Positions 29,105-61,872 of a stretch of 64,000 nucleotides of DNA are shown here, in pieces (positions within the stretch are counted from its first letter, which is position 1; every line of letters starts with the position of its first letter). Source of the stretch: Akkermansia muciniphila (lineage in GTDB: Bacteria; Verrucomicrobiota; Verrucomicrobiia; Limisphaerales; SIAT01); assembly GCA_945860945.1 (NCBI GenBank), contig CAMASG010000001.1, positions 6,545 through 70,544 on the forward strand. Direction: 5' to 3'. Below the pieces are notes generated by a model. It was given only the letters and a program-made list of their open reading frames with translations, was not told the DNA's origin and made no database searches. A program made the translations under genes and the position numbers.

Positions 29105-29180
29105 GGGCGGTTGGCGCAGTGGTTAGCGCAGATGCCTTACACGCATTTGGTCGGGGGTTCGAGTCCCTCACCGCCCACCA
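29105..29180 (+). tRNA. tRNA-Val (anticodon UAC)
   Basis: Hand-folded cloverleaf: acceptor GGGCGGT/ACCGCCC, anticodon loop CTTACAC, T-arm GGGGG-TTCGAGT-CCCTC, encoded CCA. Confidence 0.9.
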
Positions 29181-29257
29181 TTTCTCACTCTCTCTTGGCG
29201 AAAGCCTCTTGACTTGCCTCGTGCGCTTCTATTAACTGCAAACGTTTTGCAAAACGA

Positions 29258-29566
29258 ATGACTGGACGTTTGACAACTCGACAGCGGATAGTCTGCGGCT
29301 TTTGCGCCGTCTGGCTCGCGGTCTGTTCGTTGCTTGCCGTCAGTTCGTTCCACGCTGAAGAGCATACGACGTGCGACAGCCACGAGGAGGGATGCGCCCT
29401 GTGTCTTTTCACTGGCAGTCAGATTGAACCGGTTGTGCCGGTTGTCGCCCCGAATCCCAGAACGATTCACTTCAGTCCCGTTGCTGTTGCTCTGGACACT
29501 TTCATTGCTTCGATCGAGTTTCTCTCTCCTCCTGGCCGCGCACCGCCCGCCTTCTTTCTCCTCTAA
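29258..29566 (+). CDS. small exported Cys/His-rich protein (DUF2946-like architecture)
   Basis: 102 aa. Hydrophobic N-terminus followed by HAEEHTTCDSHEEGCALCLF. It is the first gene of a metal-uptake cluster. Family assignment is by resemblance only. Confidence 0.5.
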   Translation: MTGRLTTRQRIVCGFCAVWLAVCSLLAVSSFHAEEHTTCDSHEEGCALCLFTGSQIEPVVPVVAPNPRTIHFSPVAVALDTFIASIEFLSPPGRAPPAFFLL

Positions 29567-29654
29567 TTATCCATAGTCGTCCGTTGTCTTTTGTTGGAAC
29601 CGTGGCTGGCGCTGTGTGGCGTTGGCCCAACCAGAAACTTGTCAGGAGAAAAAT

Positions 29655-31073
29655 ATGAAGATCACAAAAATGTGGGGATGGACTTCGGTACTTTGCCTGA
29701 GCGCGATGTCGCTCGTGGCTCAGGAGACGAATCAGGTGGAGCAACTGAAGCTGCAGATCAAGCAACTGCAGGAGAACTTCGAGAAGCAGCAGCAGATTCA
29801 GCGTCAGCAAATCGAAGCGCTGACGCGGCAGGTTGAAACGATCCAGCGGCAGACCGCCGGGCCCGCACCTGCGGGAACGAACGCCGCCGTGGTCGGCAAG
29901 CTCGATGACTGGCAGACGCGTTCGTGGCGTTTAGGAGATCCGCTGCGGATTGGAAATCAGCGCAGTTACATGGACATCGGGTTGATCGGCACGTTTGCTG
30001 TGGGCGGTTCGACGGCGAACGATTTAGGATCGCTGCAAAGTGGCGGGCACGACCCGAGCCGTGGCGGATTCAATATGCAGTCACTGGAGCTGGCGTTGAG
30101 TGGCAACGTGGATCAACTCTTCCGCGCGAACGCGCATCTGCTGTTTCCTCCGGGTTCGGGCAGTGTGGAAACGGAGGGGGCGTATCTCGAGACGATCAGC
30201 TTGCCCGGCGGACTGCAGTTGCGCGCGGGCCAGTTTCTCACCGAGTTCGGCCGACAGAACCCGCAGCATCCGCACGCGTGGAACTTCGTGGATAGCTCGC
30301 TAGTGAATCAGCGGATGTTTGGTGGAGACAATATGCGCGGCCTCGGCGCGAGCGTTTCGTGGCTCGTGCCAACGCCGTTTTACTCCGAGCTGTTCCTCTC
30401 AGTCCAAAACAACGAAGGCGAAACGATGCACAGCTTTCGCAATGAACTGGAATCCGGAGAAACGCTGTTCGGCCGGTCGCTGAGCTTCACCAGTTCACCG
30501 AAGTCACTCAACCAACTCGCGTACACGCCGCGCTACGCCGTCTCGTTCGATCTCACCGACACGCAGACGATGCTGCTCGGTGTTTCGGCTGCGCTCGGCA
30601 ACAACAGCAGTGGAGCGGACACCCAGTCGCGCATCTACGGCGGCGATCTCACGTGGAAATGGAAACCGGCTGATCACGCGGGCGGGTATCCCTTCGTACA
30701 ATGGCAGACGGAAGGAATCTTCCGAGATTACGAGGCGGGAGCCGCGAGTGGTTTGTCTGCTGAGACGTTGAAGGACTACGGAATCTATTCGCAGATCAGC
30801 TACGGCTTCACCAAAGGCTGGATCGCAGGACTGCGATGGGATTACGTGGATCGCACTGGCCTGGCGACCAGTCTGGGTGGATCCAATAATTACGACGATG
30901 CCGAGCGTGCCGGTCGCTGGCGACTCGCGCCCAACCTCACGTGGTCCCCGAGCGAGTTCTCAAAGGTGCGCCTGCAATACAATCACGACGAGCGGCGCGG
31001 CCTTGGCACGGACCACACCGTTTGGCTGCAGTTTGAATTCAGCCTCGGCGCGCATGGCAAGCATAAGTTCTGA
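29655..31073 (+). CDS. putative outer-membrane beta-barrel porin with N-terminal coiled coil
   Basis: AGGAGA SD 6 nt upstream of the ATG. Signal peptide, then a Gln/Glu-rich heptad segment (QLKLQIKQLQENFEKQQQIQRQQIE). Alternating amphipathic strands end in a terminal aromatic residue (...HGKHKF). Confidence 0.6.
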   Translation: MKITKMWGWTSVLCLSAMSLVAQETNQVEQLKLQIKQLQENFEKQQQIQRQQIEALTRQVETIQRQTAGPAPAGTNAAVVGKLDDWQTRSWRLGDPLRIGNQRSYMDIGLIGTFAVGGSTANDLGSLQSGGHDPSRGGFNMQSLELALSGNVDQLFRANAHLLFPPGSGSVETEGAYLETISLPGGLQLRAGQFLTEFGRQNPQHPHAWNFVDSSLVNQRMFGGDNMRGLGASVSWLVPTPFYSELFLSVQNNEGETMHSFRNELESGETLFGRSLSFTSSPKSLNQLAYTPRYAVSFDLTDTQTMLLGVSAALGNNSSGADTQSRIYGGDLTWKWKPADHAGGYPFVQWQTEGIFRDYEAGAASGLSAETLKDYGIYSQISYGFTKGWIAGLRWDYVDRTGLATSLGGSNNYDDAERAGRWRLAPNLTWSPSEFSKVRLQYNHDERRGLGTDHTVWLQFEFSLGAHGKHKF

Positions 31074-31105
31074 GTCGAAGCGAAGATGAGAACTCACTAA
31101 CCGCC

Positions 31106-32020
31106 ATGAAGCTGAAATCCCTCGCCGCTATTGTCGCGCTCTTCGCGTTCACGCTGTTGGTTCAAGCCAAGCTCACCGTCGTTGCCACCACGGCGGACCT
31201 CGGTTCGATCGCTCGCGAAATCGGTGGTGACCGTGTGGAAATTACCATGCTCGCCAAGCCGACGGAGGATCCGCACTTCGTGGATCCGAAGCCGAGCTTC
31301 ATCATCAAACTCAACCGCGCCGACGCGTTGTTGGAAGGCGGCGCGGAGTTGGAGATTGGCTGGCTTACGCCGTTGTTGGAGGGCGCGCGTAACAGGAACC
31401 TCGGACTGGGGCAGCCTGGGCGCGTCATTTGTTCAAAAGGCGTCGAGATGCTCGAGGTGCCCACCGTGCTCGACCGTGCACAGGGCGACATTCACGCTGC
31501 GGGCAATCCGCATTATTTGACCGACCCCGCCAATGCGAAGATTGTCGCGAGCAACATCGCCGCTGCCTTTGCTCAACTCGATGCCGGTTCTACGGATTTC
31601 TTCCAGGCCAATCTCAAGCGGTTCATAACCCAACTCGACACCAAGCTCGCCGAGTGGCAGAAGGCGCTCGCGCCGTATCAGGGCCGGCGCATTGTGGCCT
31701 ATCACAATTCGTGGCCTTACTTCGCCAAGCGTTTCGGCTTGAAGGTGGATTTATTTCTCGAACCGAAGCCGGGCATTCCGCCATCACCCGCGCATCTCGC
31801 AGGCGTGATTGCCAAGATGAAGGCCGATAAAATTGGCGTGGTGTTCGTGGAGCCGCAGTTGAGCCGACGCACGGCCGAGAACGTTGCGCGCAACACCGGC
31901 GGAGCGGTCGTGGAGGTGTCGCACTTTCCCGGCGGCGTGAAAGGGACGGAGGCTGGCTACCTCGCGCTGATGGATCACATCGTGAACTCGTTGGCCAAAG
32001 CCTTGGCCGCGCAAAAATAA
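31106..32020 (+). CDS. metal ABC transporter substrate-binding protein (ZnuA/TroA cluster-9 family)
   Basis: Signal peptide, then the DPHFV, GNPHYL and YHNSWPYF blocks typical of ZnuA/TroA. There is no His-rich loop, so metal specificity is open. Confidence 0.85.
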   Translation: MKLKSLAAIVALFAFTLLVQAKLTVVATTADLGSIAREIGGDRVEITMLAKPTEDPHFVDPKPSFIIKLNRADALLEGGAELEIGWLTPLLEGARNRNLGLGQPGRVICSKGVEMLEVPTVLDRAQGDIHAAGNPHYLTDPANAKIVASNIAAAFAQLDAGSTDFFQANLKRFITQLDTKLAEWQKALAPYQGRRIVAYHNSWPYFAKRFGLKVDLFLEPKPGIPPSPAHLAGVIAKMKADKIGVVFVEPQLSRRTAENVARNTGGAVVEVSHFPGGVKGTEAGYLALMDHIVNSLAKALAAQK

Positions 32021-32028
32021 GGATACGG

Positions 32029-32865
32029 ATGAGTGACGCGTTTCTCGTGATGAAATGGCCGCTGCTGGCTTGCCTGCTGCTCCCGGGGATGCTTGTTTAT
32101 TTCGGCCTGCACATCGTGCGCCGCGGTATCATCTTCGTGGACCTCGCGCTCGCCCAGGTGGCCGCGCTGGGCACCTGTCTCTGCGTGATGCTCGGCCACG
32201 ACCCGCACGATTTCCACACCTACCTCTGGTCGCTCGGATTCACGTTACTGGGCGCACTTATTTTCACTTTCACGCGTACGCGTGAGAACCATCGCGTGCC
32301 GCAGGAAGCGCTCATTGGCATCGTCTATGTCGTCGCGGCGGCTGCAGCGATTCTACTTCTCAGCAAGTCCACCGCCGGCAATGAAGAGCTGAAGAACACC
32401 CTGGTTGGCGATGTGCTGAATGTTTCTCAGTCGCAGGTTTGGAAAACCTTTGTACTCTTCGCAATCATCGCGGCCATCCACTTCGTGTTTCGAAAACGGT
32501 TTCTCGCGCTCACCTTCGATCCGACGTCCGCTGCGGAGCCGCGCGCGCGTGGATGGGATTTCCTTTTCTACGCCACGTTCGGTCTCGTGGTGACGAGCTT
32601 CGTGCAGATTGGCGGCGTGCTGCTGGTCTTCAGCTACCTCGTCGTGCCGGCGGTTTGTGCGAACCTGCTCGCCACCTCGCTCGGAACGATGCTGGTGATT
32701 GGCATCGTGACGGCAACGCTCGGCGGCGTTGGCGGGTTGGCGCTTTCTTACCAATGCGATCTGCCCACCGGCGCGGCCATCGTCTGCTCGCTTGGCGCCG
32801 TTTTGATTCTTACGGCGGTCGTCTCGAAGTTTTATCAGCCTCGTTCTGAAACAGAGAAGAGTTGA
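32029..32865 (+). CDS. metal ABC transporter permease (ZnuB/TroCD family)
   Basis: 278 aa and polytopic, with ZnuB-like helices (EALIGIVYVVAAAAAILL). No cognate ATPase gene is adjacent. Confidence 0.85.
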   Translation: MSDAFLVMKWPLLACLLLPGMLVYFGLHIVRRGIIFVDLALAQVAALGTCLCVMLGHDPHDFHTYLWSLGFTLLGALIFTFTRTRENHRVPQEALIGIVYVVAAAAAILLLSKSTAGNEELKNTLVGDVLNVSQSQVWKTFVLFAIIAAIHFVFRKRFLALTFDPTSAAEPRARGWDFLFYATFGLVVTSFVQIGGVLLVFSYLVVPAVCANLLATSLGTMLVIGIVTATLGGVGGLALSYQCDLPTGAAIVCSLGAVLILTAVVSKFYQPRSETEKS

Positions 32866-32914
32866 GAAGCTCAGGAAAAACCTTTTCCGAACGGTTGCGG
32901 CAGGCATCATCGGG

Positions 32915-33047
32915 GATTGATGTGCGATTGATGTGCGATTGATGTGCGATTGATGTGCGATTGATGTGCGATTGATGTGCGATTGATGTGCGATTGATGT
33001 GCGATTGATGTCCGATTGATGTCCGATTGATGTCCGATTGATGTGCG

Positions 33048-33050
<3 letters not shown>
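32915..33050. repeat. perfect 11-bp tandem repeat, 12 full units plus a degenerate 13th
   Basis: GATTGATGTGC x8, GATTGATGTCC x3, GATTGATGTGC x1, then GATG. Unit starts are at 32915 + 11n. Confidence 0.95.
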
Positions 33051-34004
<954 letters not shown>

Positions 34005-34024: not shown

Positions 34025-35515
34025 ATGCACGAATTCCCTTTCAAACTAGTCCGCGTCCCGTCGCTCAAGACGGTTGAGGATTTTCGGAATCACTGCGTTG
34101 CGCTCGGCATCGAGTTGCCGTGCGAAGATGCCATCGCCGTCGGTGCGAACTCGCCGCTCACCTGGCCTGTTGAGCACGCCGTCATCAATGGCAAACGTAT
34201 TGGCAACCGCATCGCGCTCCATCCGATGGAGGGCTGGGATGGCACGACGAGCGGTGGCGTGACGGACGAGATGCGTCGGCGCTGGCAGCGTTTCGGTGAG
34301 AGCGGCGCGAAGTTGATTTGCGGTGCGGAGGCGATGGCCGTGCGCCCCGATGGCCGCGCGAATCCGAACCAGCTCATCATCATCGAGCAGAACAAGGCCG
34401 GGCTCGCGGAGTTGATGGGCATCTTGAAGAAGGCGCACGCGGAGCGTTACGGAACGACGGATGATTTGGTTATCGGCTTTCAGCTCACGCACTCGGGCCG
34501 ATTCTGCAAGCCGAACGACAAGAAACGCTGGGAATCGCGCGTGGCGTTCCGGCATCCGATCCTCGACAAGAAATTCAACGTGACGAGCGACGCGCAGGTT
34601 TTCACCGACGCAGAGCTGGAGCGGCTCGTTCAGGATTTCGTCGCGGCCGCGAAGATCGCGTGGGAGGTCGGCGCGGACTTCGTGGACATCAAGCATTGCC
34701 ACGGTTATCTGCTGCACGAACTCCTCGGCGCGCACACGCGGCCGGGGAAATATGGCGGCAGCTTCGAGAATCGCACGCGGCTGCTGGGCGAGATTATCGC
34801 GGGCATCCGCACGAGTGGGAATCCCATCGAGTTCGGTGTGCGACTGAGCTGCTTTGACAAGGTGCCGCATCGGCCCGATCCGGCGTTGTCGCAGCCGGGC
34901 AAACTTGGTCCAGGCATCCCCGAAGAATTTGCGCACTGCCTGCCGTATCGTTACGGCTTCGGCGTGGATCAGAATGATCCGACGCAGATTGATTTGGCAG
35001 AGACGTTTCAGTTCGTTGAACTCTGCGCGCAGATTGGCGTGAAGATTCTCAACACCACGGCCGGCTCGCCGTATTATACGCCGCATTTGCAGCGGCCGGC
35101 CGCGTATCCGCCGAGCGACGGTTACCAGTCGGCGCACGATCCGCTGATCGATGTGGCGCGGCAGGTGCAAGTGGTTCGCCAACTCCGCGCAAAGGCGCCG
35201 CAGGGAATGGTCGTCGTCGGTTCCGGGCTGAGCTACGTGCAGGAATATCTGCCGCACGTGTCGCAATATTTGCTGCGCGAGGGTTGGGCGGACATGGTGG
35301 GGATCGGGCGAGCGGTGTTGAGTTATCCGAGCATGCTCACGGATGCGGCGGAGAAGGGTGAACTGGAAAAGCGCTTCATCTGTCGCACGTTTAGCGATTG
35401 TACGACGGCGCCGCGCAATGGGCTGATCAGCGGCTGCTATCCGCTCGATAAATTCTACACGTCACGGCCCGAGGCGCAGCAGCTCAAGGAAATCAAGAAA
35501 TCGGCCGGCGCTTGA
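34025..35515 (+). CDS. NADH:flavin oxidoreductase (Old Yellow Enzyme family)
   Basis: HPMEGW, GADFVDIKHCHGYLLHELL and ENRTRL motifs. Start at ATG 34025, not the longer overlapping track ORF. Confidence 0.85.
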   Translation: MHEFPFKLVRVPSLKTVEDFRNHCVALGIELPCEDAIAVGANSPLTWPVEHAVINGKRIGNRIALHPMEGWDGTTSGGVTDEMRRRWQRFGESGAKLICGAEAMAVRPDGRANPNQLIIIEQNKAGLAELMGILKKAHAERYGTTDDLVIGFQLTHSGRFCKPNDKKRWESRVAFRHPILDKKFNVTSDAQVFTDAELERLVQDFVAAAKIAWEVGADFVDIKHCHGYLLHELLGAHTRPGKYGGSFENRTRLLGEIIAGIRTSGNPIEFGVRLSCFDKVPHRPDPALSQPGKLGPGIPEEFAHCLPYRYGFGVDQNDPTQIDLAETFQFVELCAQIGVKILNTTAGSPYYTPHLQRPAAYPPSDGYQSAHDPLIDVARQVQVVRQLRAKAPQGMVVVGSGLSYVQEYLPHVSQYLLREGWADMVGIGRAVLSYPSMLTDAAEKGELEKRFICRTFSDCTTAPRNGLISGCYPLDKFYTSRPEAQQLKEIKKSAGA

Positions 35516-35563: not shown

Positions 35564-37081
35564 ATGATTGCCTCGTTACTTCCCCGTTTGCTTCTCATCG
35601 CCCTCGGCCTTTTTCTTGCCAGCAACAGCACGGCGACTGCCGCTGAGTCACGTCCGCCCAATGTCGTTTTCATCATCGCCGACGATTTGGGCTACGGCGA
35701 CCTCGGCAGTTACGGGCAGAAGAAAATCCGCACGCCGCATCTCGATCGCATGGCGGCGGAAGGCATGCGCTTCACGCAGCATTACTCGGGTAACGCGGTG
35801 TGTGCGCCTTCGCGCTGCGTGTTGATGACGGGCAAACATCCGGGACACGCGTTCATACGTGACAACAAACAATTCAAGCCGGGACAGGATGAAGGTCAGT
35901 GGCCGATTCCCGCCGGAACGGTGACGCTCGCGAAGCTTTTCCAGCAACGCGGTTATGCGACGGGCGGTTTCGGTAAGTGGGGTCTTGGTGGGCCGGGCAC
36001 GGAAGGCGAACCGCTCAAGCAGGGGTTCACGCGCTGGTTCGGCTACAATTGCCAAGCCGTCGCGCATAATTTTTATCCGACCTATCTGTGGGACAACGAT
36101 CGCAAGGTGCCGTTGAAAAATCTGCCCTTCGCCGCGAATCAAAAACTGTCCGAGGGCGCGGACCCGAAAGATCCGGCGAGCTACGTGCGCTACTCGGGGA
36201 AGGAGTATGCGTCGGACCTCATCTGGGAGCAGGCGCGCCAGTTCGTGCGGGATAACAAGTCGGGCCCCTTTCTTCTTTTCGCGCCGACGACCGTGCCTCA
36301 TCTGGCGCTGCAGGTGCCGGAAGATTCGCTGGCCGAGTATCGCGGTAAATTCCACGACGAACCGTATCCGGGCGGCAAAGGTTACCTGCCGCACATGATT
36401 CCCCGTGCGGCATACGCGGCGATGATCACGCGTATGGACAAAGAAATTGGCCGTGTGATGGACTTGGTGAAGGAGCTCGGGCTCGACGAGCAGACAATCT
36501 TCCTCTTCACGTCGGATAACGGCCCGCTCTACGACAAGCTCGGCGGCACCGATTGCGAGTTCTTCAACTCGCATGGCGGACTGCGTGGGCGCAAAGGCGC
36601 GCTTTACGAAGGCGGTTTTCGCGTGCCTGGCATCGTGCGTTGGAAAGGCCGCATCACGCCGGGCATCTCGGAACGCGTGACGGGGTTCGAGGATTGGCTG
36701 CCGACATTGCTCGAGTTGGTTGGAGCGAAAGAGGCGCTGCCCGCCGATCTTGATGGCTTCAGCTTCGCACCGACGTTGCGTGGCGAGAAACAGCCGGACC
36801 GCCCGTTTCTCTATCGCGAGTTTCCCGGCTACGGCGGGCAGCAGTGTATCCGCGTGGGCGACTGGAAAGGTGTTCGCCAAGGTTTGTTCTTGAGAGGGAA
36901 GAAAGCTGGCACATCAGAAGGACGCCTCGAGTTGTATAACCTCAAAGAGGACGTCGCCGAGTCGCGCGATGTGGCCGCGCAGCATCCGGAGATTGTCGCG
37001 CGGCTGGAGCGGTTGTTGCGCGAGCAGCATACGCCTTCAAAGGAGTTTCCGTTTCCGCTGCTTGACGCTGCTGCGCGTTGA
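35564..37081 (+). CDS. arylsulfatase A-family sulfatase (formylglycine-dependent)
   Basis: Signal peptide, PNVVFIIADDLGYGDLG and the CAPSRCVLMTGK formylglycine motif. A GGAGG SD precedes the ATG. Confidence 0.9.
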   Translation: MIASLLPRLLLIALGLFLASNSTATAAESRPPNVVFIIADDLGYGDLGSYGQKKIRTPHLDRMAAEGMRFTQHYSGNAVCAPSRCVLMTGKHPGHAFIRDNKQFKPGQDEGQWPIPAGTVTLAKLFQQRGYATGGFGKWGLGGPGTEGEPLKQGFTRWFGYNCQAVAHNFYPTYLWDNDRKVPLKNLPFAANQKLSEGADPKDPASYVRYSGKEYASDLIWEQARQFVRDNKSGPFLLFAPTTVPHLALQVPEDSLAEYRGKFHDEPYPGGKGYLPHMIPRAAYAAMITRMDKEIGRVMDLVKELGLDEQTIFLFTSDNGPLYDKLGGTDCEFFNSHGGLRGRKGALYEGGFRVPGIVRWKGRITPGISERVTGFEDWLPTLLELVGAKEALPADLDGFSFAPTLRGEKQPDRPFLYREFPGYGGQQCIRVGDWKGVRQGLFLRGKKAGTSEGRLELYNLKEDVAESRDVAAQHPEIVARLERLLREQHTPSKEFPFPLLDAAAR

Positions 37082-59505: not shown

Positions 59506-61872
59506 ATGGCATACAAAGCCACCGCCCAGATTGGGGCCCAGCAGATCCACATCGAAACCGGCAAACTCGCCAAGCAGGCTGACGGCGCCGTTACTGTCCA
59601 GCTCGGTGAGACGATTATCGTCGTCGCCGCCGTCGCCGCCACCAAGGCCAAGCCCGGTCAGGACTTCTTCCCGCTCACCGTTGATTACCGTGAGAAGGCC
59701 GCTGCCGCGGGCCGCTTCCCCGGCGGTTACTTCAAGCGCGAAGGCCGGCCGACTGAGAAAGAAATTCTCACCTGCCGTCTGACCGACCGTCCGATCCGTC
59801 CGCTCTTCCCGAAGGGCTGGTACAACGAGGTGCAGGTCCAGACCGTTCTTCTCTCCGCTGACGGCGAGAATGATCCGGACATCCTTTCCATCATCGGCGC
59901 GTCCGCCGCGCTCTCCGTGAGTGATATCCCGTGGGCTGGCCCGCTCGGCGCTGTGCGGGTCGGTCGTATCGGCGGCGAGTTCATCGCCAACCCGACGCAC
60001 GTGCAGATGGCCGAGAGCGATCTCGACCTCGTGTACGTCGGCAACGAAACCGACATCGTGATGTACGAAGGTGCGGCCGAGGAAATCACCGAGGACGACT
60101 TCAACGCCGCTCTCCGTTTCGCTCAAGAGTGCTGCTTGCCGATCATCGCTGCGCAGAAGGAACTCATCGCGAAGGCCGGCAAGCCCAAGCGCCAGATCAC
60201 CGTCAACCTTGTTCCTGACGAGATTCTCAAAGAAGCCAAGTCGCTCGCGGGCGACCGTTTTGTTCCCGCGTTGCTCACGCCCGGCAAGCTCGCCCGCGAA
60301 GGCGCCTGCAAGGCGATTCAGGACGAGGTCGGCGCGAAGCTCGTCGAGAAGTTCGGCGCGGAGAAGGTGACCTCCTTCACCGTCAGCCAGGCTTTCTACT
60401 ACATCCAGAAGGAAGCTGTGCGCAGCTTGATCCTCGATTCCGGCAAGCGCCTCGACGGCCGCGGCTTCGATGATATCCGTGCGATCTCTGGCGAAGTCGG
60501 CATCCTGCCGCGCGTTCACGGTTCGGCCATCTTCACCCGTGGCGAGACGCAGGCGATAAGCCTCGTCACGCTCGGTACGAGCGATGACGCGCAGGATTTT
60601 GATTCCTACACCGGCGGCGAGACGACCAAGAAGTTCATGCTGCATTACAACTTCCCGAACTTCTCCGTCGGCGAGACCGGCCGTATCACCGGCCCCGGCC
60701 GCCGCGAAATCGGTCACGGCGCTCTCGCTGAGCGTTCCATCGCGCCGATGATTCCGCTCAAGGATTATCCGTACGCCGTCCGCGTCGTCAGCGAGATCAT
60801 GGAGTCCAACGGCTCCACCTCGATGGCCAGCGTCTGCGGTGGCACGCTCGCGCTCATGGATGCCGGCGTCCCGCTCATCCGCCCCGTCGCCGGCATCAGC
60901 ATCGGTATCTGCACCGATCACGACGCCAGTGACGCAATCACGCGCTACAAACTTCTCTCCGACATCATCGGTTGGGAAGACGGCTACTGCGACATGGATT
61001 GCAAAATCGCCGGCACCGAGAAGGGCATCACTGGATTCCAGCTCGATCTGAAGCTGCGCGGCATGACGCACAAGATCATGACCGAGACGGTCGAGAAGGC
61101 TCGCATCGCTCGCGTCTTCATCCTTGGCGAGATGGCGAAAGTCCTCGCCGAGCCGCGCAAGGAGCTGAGCAAATACGCCCCGCGCATCGTCACCCTCAAG
61201 ATCAACCCCGAGAAAATCGGCGCGATCATCGGGCCTGGCGGCAAGAACATCAAACGCCTCGTCGAAGAGTCCGGTTGCGAAATCAACATCGAGGACGACG
61301 GCTCCGTGCACATCTACTCTGTCTCCGCCGAGGGCATCCAGATCGCTCGCGAAGCGATCGAAGGGATGACCGCCGAGGCTGAGATTGGCAAGGTCTACCG
61401 CGGCAAGGTCGTCACGATCAAAGAATTCGGCGCCTTCGTCGAGTTCCTCCCCGGAAAGGACGGACTCGTGCACATCTCCGAGCTCGCCAACTTCCGCGTC
61501 AAGATGGTCGAGGACATCGTCAAGGTGGGCGATGAAATTGCCGTCAAGTGTCTCGGTGTGGACGAGAAGGGCCGCGTGAAACTTTCGCGCCGCGCCGCGA
61601 TGGCTGACCGCGATGTCGAACATGGCGGTGAACCTCAGGGCGATCAACCGGCCGAAGGTGGCGAGCACCGTGAACATCGCGCTGAAGGCGGCGAGCACCG
61701 TGCTGAAGCTGGAGAACACCGTGAACGTCGCGCTGAAGGCGGCGAACAACAACAGGGTGACCGCCCTCCCGCCGACCGACCCGAACACCGCGAACGCGGT
61801 AATGGCGGTGGTGATCGTGGCGGAGACCGCGGTGGTCGCGGTGGTGGTGGCGGCCGTGGTGGTCGTCGCTAA
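59506..61872 (+). CDS. pnp: polyribonucleotide nucleotidyltransferase (PNPase) with a ~90-aa Glu/His/Arg- and RGG-rich C-terminal tail
   Basis: Two RNase PH domains, KH ([11 protein letters not shown]) and S1 ([15 protein letters not shown]). The tail at nt 61600-61869 ends in [20 protein letters not shown]. Confidence 0.95.

Follow-up and report, generated by a model that had tools for sequence, protein, structure and literature searches.

Background

In Haemophilus influenzae, expression of the hmw1A gene is inversely proportional to the number of heptamer units in a simple sequence repeat (SSR), (ATCTTTC)n, located in its 5' untranslated region (PMC12721329). In hmw1A and hmw2A, the repeats pair with a G-rich arm in a long hairpin, which is cleaved by RNase III (PMC12721329; PMC8262952). 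In Mycobacterium tuberculosis, tandem repeats with units of 54-58 bp are found in promoters 12-29 bp upstream of metabolic genes (dop, lpdA-glpD2, cysG-efpA). Their copy number is polyphyletic among strains and missed by short reads, and a function as expression rheostat has been proposed (PMC12817950). Here, we describe an 11-bp tandem array that ends in the start codon of a gene of the DUF993/dihydrodipicolinate synthase (DHDPS) family. It is located in a stretch of 64,000 nucleotides (referred to as the window) from contig CAMASG010000001.1 of the verrucomicrobial genome assembly GCA_945860945.1.

Much is known about hypermutable upstream tracts in pathogens adapted to a host (Haemophilus, Neisseria, Mycobacterium), but such tracts are hardly documented in free-living uncultured environmental bacteria. 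The array belongs to the class of upstream SSR and variable-number tandem repeat (VNTR) loci, like H. influenzae hmw1A and the promoter repeats of M. tuberculosis. We consider it fairly probable that it is a strain-variable VNTR generated by slippage in the predicted 5' leader of the DUF993/DHDPS-family gene and that it tunes the expression of this gene.

Structure of the 11-bp tandem array

The array consists of 12 complete units of 11 bp at positions 32915..33046 of the plus strand, as delimited by Tandem Repeats Finder (TRF), a pattern search and a unit census. Eight copies of GATTGATGTGC (32915-33002) are followed by three copies of GATTGATGTCC (33003-33035) and a further copy of GATTGATGTGC (33036-33046). 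A partial 13th unit, GATG (33047..33050, plus strand), holds the start codon ATG at 33048-33050, an assignment based on the sequence and on the N-termini of orthologues. A preliminary description of the DNA had already recognized this head-to-tail 8+3+1 order with the start codon at its end, and both TRF and the census confirm it. The term 'perfect' repeat used there fits the nine identical units and is a slight overstatement for the remaining three, which carry one G>C change. TRF reports the array at 32915..33049 with a period of 11, 12.3 copies, 98% matches and a score of 249, which is by far the top score among the tandem repeats of the window. It includes an unbroken run of eight identical units. 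At up to one mismatch, a search of the window returned 13 occurrences of the 11-mer compared to 1.6 expected from shuffled sequences, and none of 100 shuffles reached 13.

Each unit contains TGATG. As described before, ATG and TGA are present in all three frames of the plus strand, and the minus strand is free of stop codons throughout the array, reading ...HINRTSIAHQS... and being crossed by three open reading frames (ORFs; 32353..33123, 32810..33115 and 32907..33932). A coding function of the array was rejected for both strands. The plus strand has a stop every 33 nt per frame. The minus-strand ORFs are open only since no stop triplet occurs in the unit, and they lie antisense to genes with Pfam support. 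With a non-coding array, a frameshift switch is excluded. The preliminary description had also taken a unit length that is not a multiple of three as the mark of a contingency element. This argument holds for repeats in coding sequence, but the present array is non-coding, with stops in all plus-strand frames.

Copy-number alleles within the species

Contigs carrying the locus were obtained from exact copies of the upstream permease gene, from close variants of the downstream protein and from one junction search in Joint Genome Institute (JGI) metagenomes. In total, 28 informative distinct contigs share the flanks GGCAGGCATCATCGG (left) and GATGAATAATACAAC (right). Typically, the left flank is followed by a C, a degenerate proto-unit, GAGTCATGTGC, and two units (proto+2; 19 contigs, e.g. 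L003, L091, L092, L095-L098 and L100). The proto-unit is followed by a single unit in three contigs (proto+1; L002, L010 and L112), and the JGI search yielded a single locus, which has the proto+1 allele. One contig each shows the C followed by three perfect units (L099, NCBI GCA_947505605.1), by four perfect units (L121, ERZ27280311), and by the proto-unit and ten perfect units lacking GTCC variants (L122, ERZ27280310). The G followed by 12 units in the 8+3+1 pattern is found in three assemblies, namely the window, ERZ27280294 and ERZ27280329 (window, L093 and L094). The copy-number variation postulated in the preliminary description is thereby found among close relatives, as alleles of 1, 2, 3, 4, 10 and 12 units between identical flanks.

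The window and contigs L091-L100 differ by 0-45 single-nucleotide polymorphisms (SNPs) over 5.6 kb of flanking sequence (at least 99.2% identity), and the array is their sole length difference. When shorter flanks are compared, identity is about 98% for L111-L119 and L010, whereas L002 represents a relative with 93-96% identity. The 3-, 4- and 12-unit alleles form one sublineage with 1-4 SNPs per 950 bp. The proto+10 contig L122 has a separate background, with 17-21 SNPs per 950 bp, and has retained both the proto-unit and the left-boundary C. Because these flanking SNPs place L122 apart from the 3/4/12 sublineage, growth to at least ten units appears to have occurred at least twice, independently.

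The comparison of alleles indicates that the commonest and ancestral state in the species is an imperfect duplication, consisting of the proto-unit and one or two units. In one sublineage, the tract first reached three, then four and finally 12 perfect or near-perfect units, and in another it grew to the proto-unit plus ten units. The three-unit GTCC block reflects a point mutation in one unit that was subsequently copied locally. Since the motif GCGA is present at both borders of the proto-unit, register-shifted slippage explains its loss in the 3/4/12 series. Recent expansion by slippage, as suggested before, is supported by the allele series and the two apparently independent expansions. 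A smaller change is represented by L112, whose proto+1 allele sits among the proto+2 contigs of its sublineage. This is a one-unit step, either a gain or a loss.

All contigs stem from short-read metagenome assemblies (k141), and the window region matches MEGAHIT contigs in the European Nucleotide Archive (ENA), such as ERZ27280294 k141_1212505. The unit count could accordingly be a product of the de Bruijn assembler and not of the genome. The longest alleles measure 122 and 133 nt, just below k=141; longer ones could not assemble, and one contig, L120, ends inside the repeat. However, k exceeds the length of the whole array (135 bp) as well as that of its longest perfect run, which measures 88 bp in the window and 110 bp in L122. 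Since no perfect run exceeds 110 bp, the 141-mers spanning the array hold unique sequence and, by the logic of k-mer assembly, must occur in the reads. Furthermore, the identical 8+3+1 structure was assembled from three different samples with SNPs elsewhere, and the six different alleles each have clean flanks. The window and ERZ27280294, for instance, differ by 11 SNPs in 20.9 kb and by none in the array. An assembly artefact is extremely unlikely on these grounds, and the array appears to be a genuine slippage-driven VNTR. The upper tail of the allele distribution is censored, as more than ~12 units cannot assemble at k=141. Contig L120 (ERZ27265263 k141_646371, positions 1-16) starts within the repeat 16 nt ahead of the ATG and encodes other genes downstream of the DUF993-family gene. 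Its break may be due to co-existing alleles or to a longer, unassemblable array in that sample.

Specificity of the repeat

An exact search for the dimer of the unit returned no match in 185,579 species genomes (GTDB, one genome per species). Likewise, neither a tandem repeat nor a related sequence was found upstream of the gene in 80 orthologous loci from GTDB, and TRF detected no array with a period of at least 7 and at least 5 copies in 611 kb of orthologous neighborhoods. The repeat therefore seems to be specific to this locus and this species and not part of a dispersed genomic family.

These results bear on a further proposal of the preliminary description, in which the repeat is a multimeric operator array for cooperative binding of a regulator of the PhoB/OmpR or RepB type, or a stretch of intrinsically bent DNA. 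In its favor, pho boxes (PMC4447250) and the distal direct repeats of pMV158 RepB (PMC9943647) have the same 11-bp head-to-tail period, and the array adjoins a promoter-like element. However, alleles of the species have between 1 and 12 units, the commonest allele has only two units and a degenerate one, and no related sequence precedes the orthologues of other species. No regulator gene is adjacent. The nearest one, a MarR-family gene, is encoded ~7 kb downstream, and a regulator may be encoded farther away. Phased bending is not indicated either, as the unit GATTGATGTGC contains no A-tract and no A/T tract of at least 4 bp, its longest A/T run being the three nucleotides ATT. B-DNA has ~10.5 bp per turn, so that each 11-bp unit adds ~17 degrees and the phase drifts with every copy. 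The earlier statement that copy-number changes keep the flanks on the same face of the DNA is hence only approximate, and 10-11 extra units would turn them to roughly opposite faces. Taken together, we regard an operator array or bent DNA as highly unlikely. The unit was also compared by eye to DnaA-box, Fur/Zur-box and CRP-like operator consensus sequences, and no convincing similarity to these was seen.

Promoter-like element and start codon of the downstream gene

The stop codon of the upstream ABC-3 permease gene (32865) and the ATG at 33048 delimit a gap of 182 nt, in agreement with the preliminary description. According to the latter, the array leaves no obvious room for a classical promoter or a Shine-Dalgarno (SD) sequence next to the ATG. 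An SD sequence is indeed missing, and SD-less starts are usual for the verrucomicrobial orthologues of the gene, but a conserved promoter-like element is present in the 49 nt that precede the array. It includes the inverted repeat GGAAAAACCTTTTCC (32874..32888, plus strand), which is kept upstream of orthologues with different upstream genes. The right arm of the inverted repeat, TTTTCC (32883-32888, plus strand), corresponds in position to the -35 element of the candidate promoter. A spacer of 16 nt separates TTTTCC from the candidate -10 hexamer CATCAT (32905..32910, plus strand), and the first unit begins another 4 nt downstream. The strict inverted-repeat pattern occurs once in the window and six times in 268 kb of orthologous loci, with three of the six matches located within 75 nt of the ATG of the orthologue. 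In a fourth lineage (L004-L009), GAAAATCCTTTTC is found at -65, though the upstream neighbor in this lineage is a tRNA gene and not the permease gene.

The upstream regions of the orthologues were compared by anchoring them on a TAnnnT hexamer. A common layout is found in L004, L028, L011-L018, L021, L037, L039 and L040. It comprises a GAAA-rich stretch, a T-rich hexamer (TTTTCC, TTTTGC, TTTGTG, TCTTCC and others), a 17-nt spacer and TAnnnT. Taking all loci together, the spacer measures 16-18 nt. The distance from TAnnnT to the ATG is 27-31 nt in L004 and L028 and 6-9 nt in all others, the latter being suggestive of leaderless or near-leaderless mRNAs. In the proto+1 allele, CATCAT and the ATG are 27 nt apart, the same distance as in L004. 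As the orthologues share this layout, we infer that the gene is transcribed from a promoter of its own directly left of the array, that the proto+1 allele has the ancestral geometry and that the array is part of the transcribed 5' leader, with a predicted transcription start at ~32917 inside the first unit. The regulatory position that had been proposed for the array is supported, since the array follows a conserved -10-like hexamer and precedes the start codon. No terminator-like site was found between the permease gene and the DUF993-family gene. The imperfect GAAA..TTTC palindrome could, in addition, be a candidate operator.

Position 32914 (plus strand) is a G in all three 12-unit assemblies and a C in every other allele, and is hence private to the 12-unit lineage. 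It is situated between the -10 candidate and the first unit, at the predicted boundary of discriminator and leader. The G creates the sequence GGGGA 3 nt ahead of the ATG of the first unit, a weak purine-rich, SD-like patch.

The downstream gene (33048..34004, plus strand) encodes a protein of 318 aa that is assigned to the DUF993/DHDPS family by a Pfam match (PF06187, E=1.2e-7) and the names of source records. None of the alleles disrupts it. According to public records (ENA/NCBI gene calls), the gene begins at an ATG at 33078 and encodes 308 aa. Orthologues, in contrast, start with MN.. about ten codons ahead of a conserved stretch of ten residues. The relative with 93% identity encodes MNNTTAFPAPLPLL, with Leu (TTG) at the codon corresponding to 33078 and MNNTTAF retained, and its own gene call begins at the position equivalent to 33048. 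Owing to the N-termini of the orthologues and the Leu codon of the 93% relative, 33048 is supported as a better start than 33078. Gene callers are probably misled by the repeat beside the start.

The choice of start codon also affects another possible arrangement, in which the repeat provides the core promoter itself. TTGATG of the penultimate unit (33027-33032) would serve as -35 and AATAAT (33051-33056) as -10 element, transcription would start at ~33063 and translation at 33078, and the remaining units would belong to the DNA upstream of the core promoter. This pair is the only sigma-70-like site in 32500-33500 (9/12 matches, 18-nt spacer; 0.2 expected in shuffled sequences), and TTGATG at the 18-nt spacing is present only in alleles with at least two perfect units. 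The start at 33078 is the one picked by gene callers, but it conflicts with the MN.. N-terminus ~10 codons upstream, which is conserved across orthologues from Verrucomicrobiota, and with the TTG codon and the retained MNNTTAF of the 93% relative. Moreover, the conserved promoter-like architecture to the left of the array is a different one, and the leader from ~33063 to 33078 would be without SD sequence as well. We judge a core promoter within the repeat to be very improbable.

In promoter-spacer SSRs such as that of H. influenzae hif, the tract is located between the -35 and -10 elements and the unit number sets the length of the spacer. Such a switch was rejected for the present locus. The array starts after the -10 candidate, and in the alternative pair TTGATG-18-AATAAT the last two units fix the spacing regardless of copy number.

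Possible effects of copy number

Read from the plus strand, a chain of 12 overlapping, potentially translated mini-ORFs extends over 32920..33055. Eleven of them have the sequence AUG-UGC/UCC-GAU-UGA (MCD*/MSD*), and the stop codon of each overlaps the next AUG (UGAUG). The last one, AUG-UGC-GAU-GAA-UAA (MCDE*), overlaps the ATG of the gene in another frame. Each unit gained would add 11 nt to the leader and one out-of-frame AUG-UGC-GAU-UGA mini-ORF before the SD-less start, and expansion would lengthen the predicted leader from ~20 nt to ~130 nt. Since the gene and its verrucomicrobial orthologues lack an SD sequence, the additional upstream AUGs are plausible competitors or relays for initiating ribosomes. 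On the reading of the array as an expression-tuning VNTR, copy number would most likely modulate the DUF993-family gene at the level of translation or mRNA yield, probably in the downward direction. If co-transcribed, the oxidoreductase and sulfatase genes that follow might be affected too. The effect would be graded, heritable and mutationally labile, as opposed to an ON/OFF frameshift switch.

A more specific mechanism would be a translated relay, in which ribosomes translate the three-codon mini-ORFs, terminate at UGAUG and re-initiate unit by unit, such that the unit number sets how many ribosomes reach the SD-less start. Transcription would start in the first unit, which brings the first AUG close to the 5' end of the mRNA. 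The last mini-ORF would stop at UAA (33053-55), a few nucleotides past the true AUG at 33048. Very short upstream ORFs and minigenes are known from the bar minigenes of phage lambda, and UGAUG overlaps mediate termination-reinitiation in operons. The present units resemble both, each encoding a three-codon ORF with a stop that overlaps the following AUG. To our knowledge, neither a tandem relay of 12 such mini-ORFs nor a mechanism in which overlapping minicistrons form a slippage-tunable rheostat has been described. If the relay were true, the locus would be such a translational rheostat, and the two-unit ancestral state, which already has this layout, would explain why this particular 11-mer expanded. 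We consider the relay improbable.

The secondary structure of the leader was predicted as well. Its minimum free energy is -74.2 kcal/mol, compared to a mean of -78.6 kcal/mol for shuffled sequences (z=+0.95), and the leader is thus not more stable than shuffles. The predicted accessibility of the region from -12 to +14 around the AUG is 0.45-0.58 across synthetic alleles with 0-16 units and shows no trend. An hmw-like hairpin processed by RNase III was rejected based on these two results. A search of 32000-34000 against Rfam 15 with a permissive E-value yielded only three sub-threshold matches at chance level.

Several observations weigh against the tuning of expression by the array. The flat accessibility of the start and the unremarkable stability of the leader do not point to the RNA-structure route of hmw1A. 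At the level of consensus sequences, the alleles look stable and not flickering, as the 12-unit assemblies are structurally identical and proto+2 is found in 19 contigs. Strict phase variation, by comparison, involves reversibility and switching at 100-10,000 times the basal mutation rate (PMC11868660). The regulated gene encodes a cytoplasmic-type metabolic enzyme, whereas contingency loci typically concern surface or restriction-modification functions. Furthermore, the -35 arm TTTTCC is far from TTGACA, the sigma-70 scan did not call this site, and its assignment rests on conservation. Finally, both the existence and the direction of an effect on expression are predictions.

An alternative is a neutral VNTR. 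Slippage at this hotspot would have enlarged the tract in two sublineages by chance, expression of the downstream genes would not change to a meaningful degree, and the locus would be useful as a strain marker only, as in multiple-locus VNTR analysis (MLVA). The allele series with its stable consensus alleles within sublineages, a start accessibility that is independent of copy number, the lack of an Rfam family and of a typical contingency gene, and the intactness of the downstream gene in all alleles are in line with neutrality. The same is true for the absence of the repeat from all other species searched, which speaks against an ancient functional element. On the other hand, ~110 nt and ten extra AUGs between a -10-like element and an SD-less start are unlikely to be neutral for expression. 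In addition, two independent expansions to at least ten units occurred at one site, whereas no comparable array was found in the 611 kb of related DNA. Neutrality is a serious possibility in view of this evidence, but on balance an unlikely one. A VNTR that tunes the DUF993-family gene is the interpretation we prefer. Such tuning could have been favored by selection (bet-hedging) or be a tolerated by-product.

Genomic neighborhood

The DUF993-family gene is part of a co-directional cluster. It is followed by a gene for an NADH:flavin oxidoreductase similar to old yellow enzyme (OYE-like; 34025..35515, plus strand, 496 aa) and by a sulfatase gene (35564..37081, plus strand, 505 aa), which is the last of the cluster; both were assigned by domain search and public records. 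Upstream, the ABC-3 metal permease gene (32029..32865, plus strand) forms with its stop codon the left edge of the intergenic region. The 318-aa protein has no sequence relative among PDB chains or in NCBIfam, and its function is therefore given at the level of the DUF993/DHDPS family only. Its best protein relatives are labelled Pedosphaera, Limisphaerales or Verrucomicrobia. The pairing of the DUF993-family gene with the OYE-like gene is present in ten of the orthologous loci fetched from GTDB.

The downstream partners differ in the L004 group (L004-L009), in which genes for a 2-hydroxyacid dehydrogenase, a transporter of the major facilitator superfamily (MFS) and a CN-hydrolase follow the orthologue. 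In these relatives with 88% identity, the DUF993-family gene is located directly after tRNA-Val. In the window, a block of ~3.9 kb lies between tRNA-Val (29105-29180) and the DUF993-family gene (29105-33047 compared). It encodes a 472-aa protein without Pfam or NCBIfam match, followed by ZnuA and the ABC-3 permease, and no ABC ATPase gene was seen within it. The difference is an insertion or deletion adjoining the tRNA gene.

Another tandem repeat of the window is located at 61639-61750. It has a unit of 51 bp (2.2 copies, 83% matches, TRF score 159) with a nested periodicity of 21 bp and is followed by short GGT-rich repeats at 61828-61869. The 61639-61750 repeat is probably a repetitive coding region.

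Comparison with known systems

The locus offers a clean natural series of 1, 2, 3, 4, 10 and 12 units, with two expansions, within a single verrucomicrobial species and across many metagenomes. It allows one to ask whether the tuning of expression by VNTRs acts on ordinary metabolic operons in environmental populations, and how stable low-copy duplications turn into run-away arrays. On the practical side, alleles longer than k are censored in short-read assemblies, and start codons beside such repeats are misplaced by gene callers.

The pho boxes (PMC4447250) and the distal direct repeats of pMV158 RepB (PMC9943647) share with the array only the 11-bp period of about one helical turn, by which consecutive units come to lie on almost the same side of the helix. 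They consist of a fixed and conserved number of two to three units with a known cognate protein, whereas the present repeat has 1-12 units, no conservation outside the species and no candidate binder. MLVA loci, for example those of Francisella noatunensis (PMC3037875), are similarly intergenic minisatellites with strain-variable unit numbers that mark lineages. They are used as neutral markers, while the array described here is placed exactly between a promoter-like element and a start codon.

The tandem repeats of M. tuberculosis likewise lie a few base pairs upstream of metabolic or housekeeping genes, vary among strains and are obscured by short-read assembly. Their units, however, duplicate promoter elements, whereas the 11-bp unit is located downstream of the candidate -10 element and duplicates the leader.

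The most extensive similarity is seen with hmw1A and hmw2A. In both cases, a non-triplet unit is repeated in the non-coding DNA that separates promoter and start codon, in a tract that is transcribed as part of the leader (as predicted for the present array). Copy number varies among strains due to slippage, and the expected effect is graded and not of the ON/OFF type. In contrast to the hmw hairpin, the leader with the array is predicted to be no more stable than shuffled sequences, and accessibility is independent of unit number. The repeated 11-nt unit contains AUG as well as UGA and directly adjoins the start codon. The gene belongs to a free-living uncultured Verrucomicrobium and codes for a metabolic enzyme, not for an adhesin, and the effect on expression is a predicted one. 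With these differences in mind, hmw1A can be regarded as the closest working analogy for the array.

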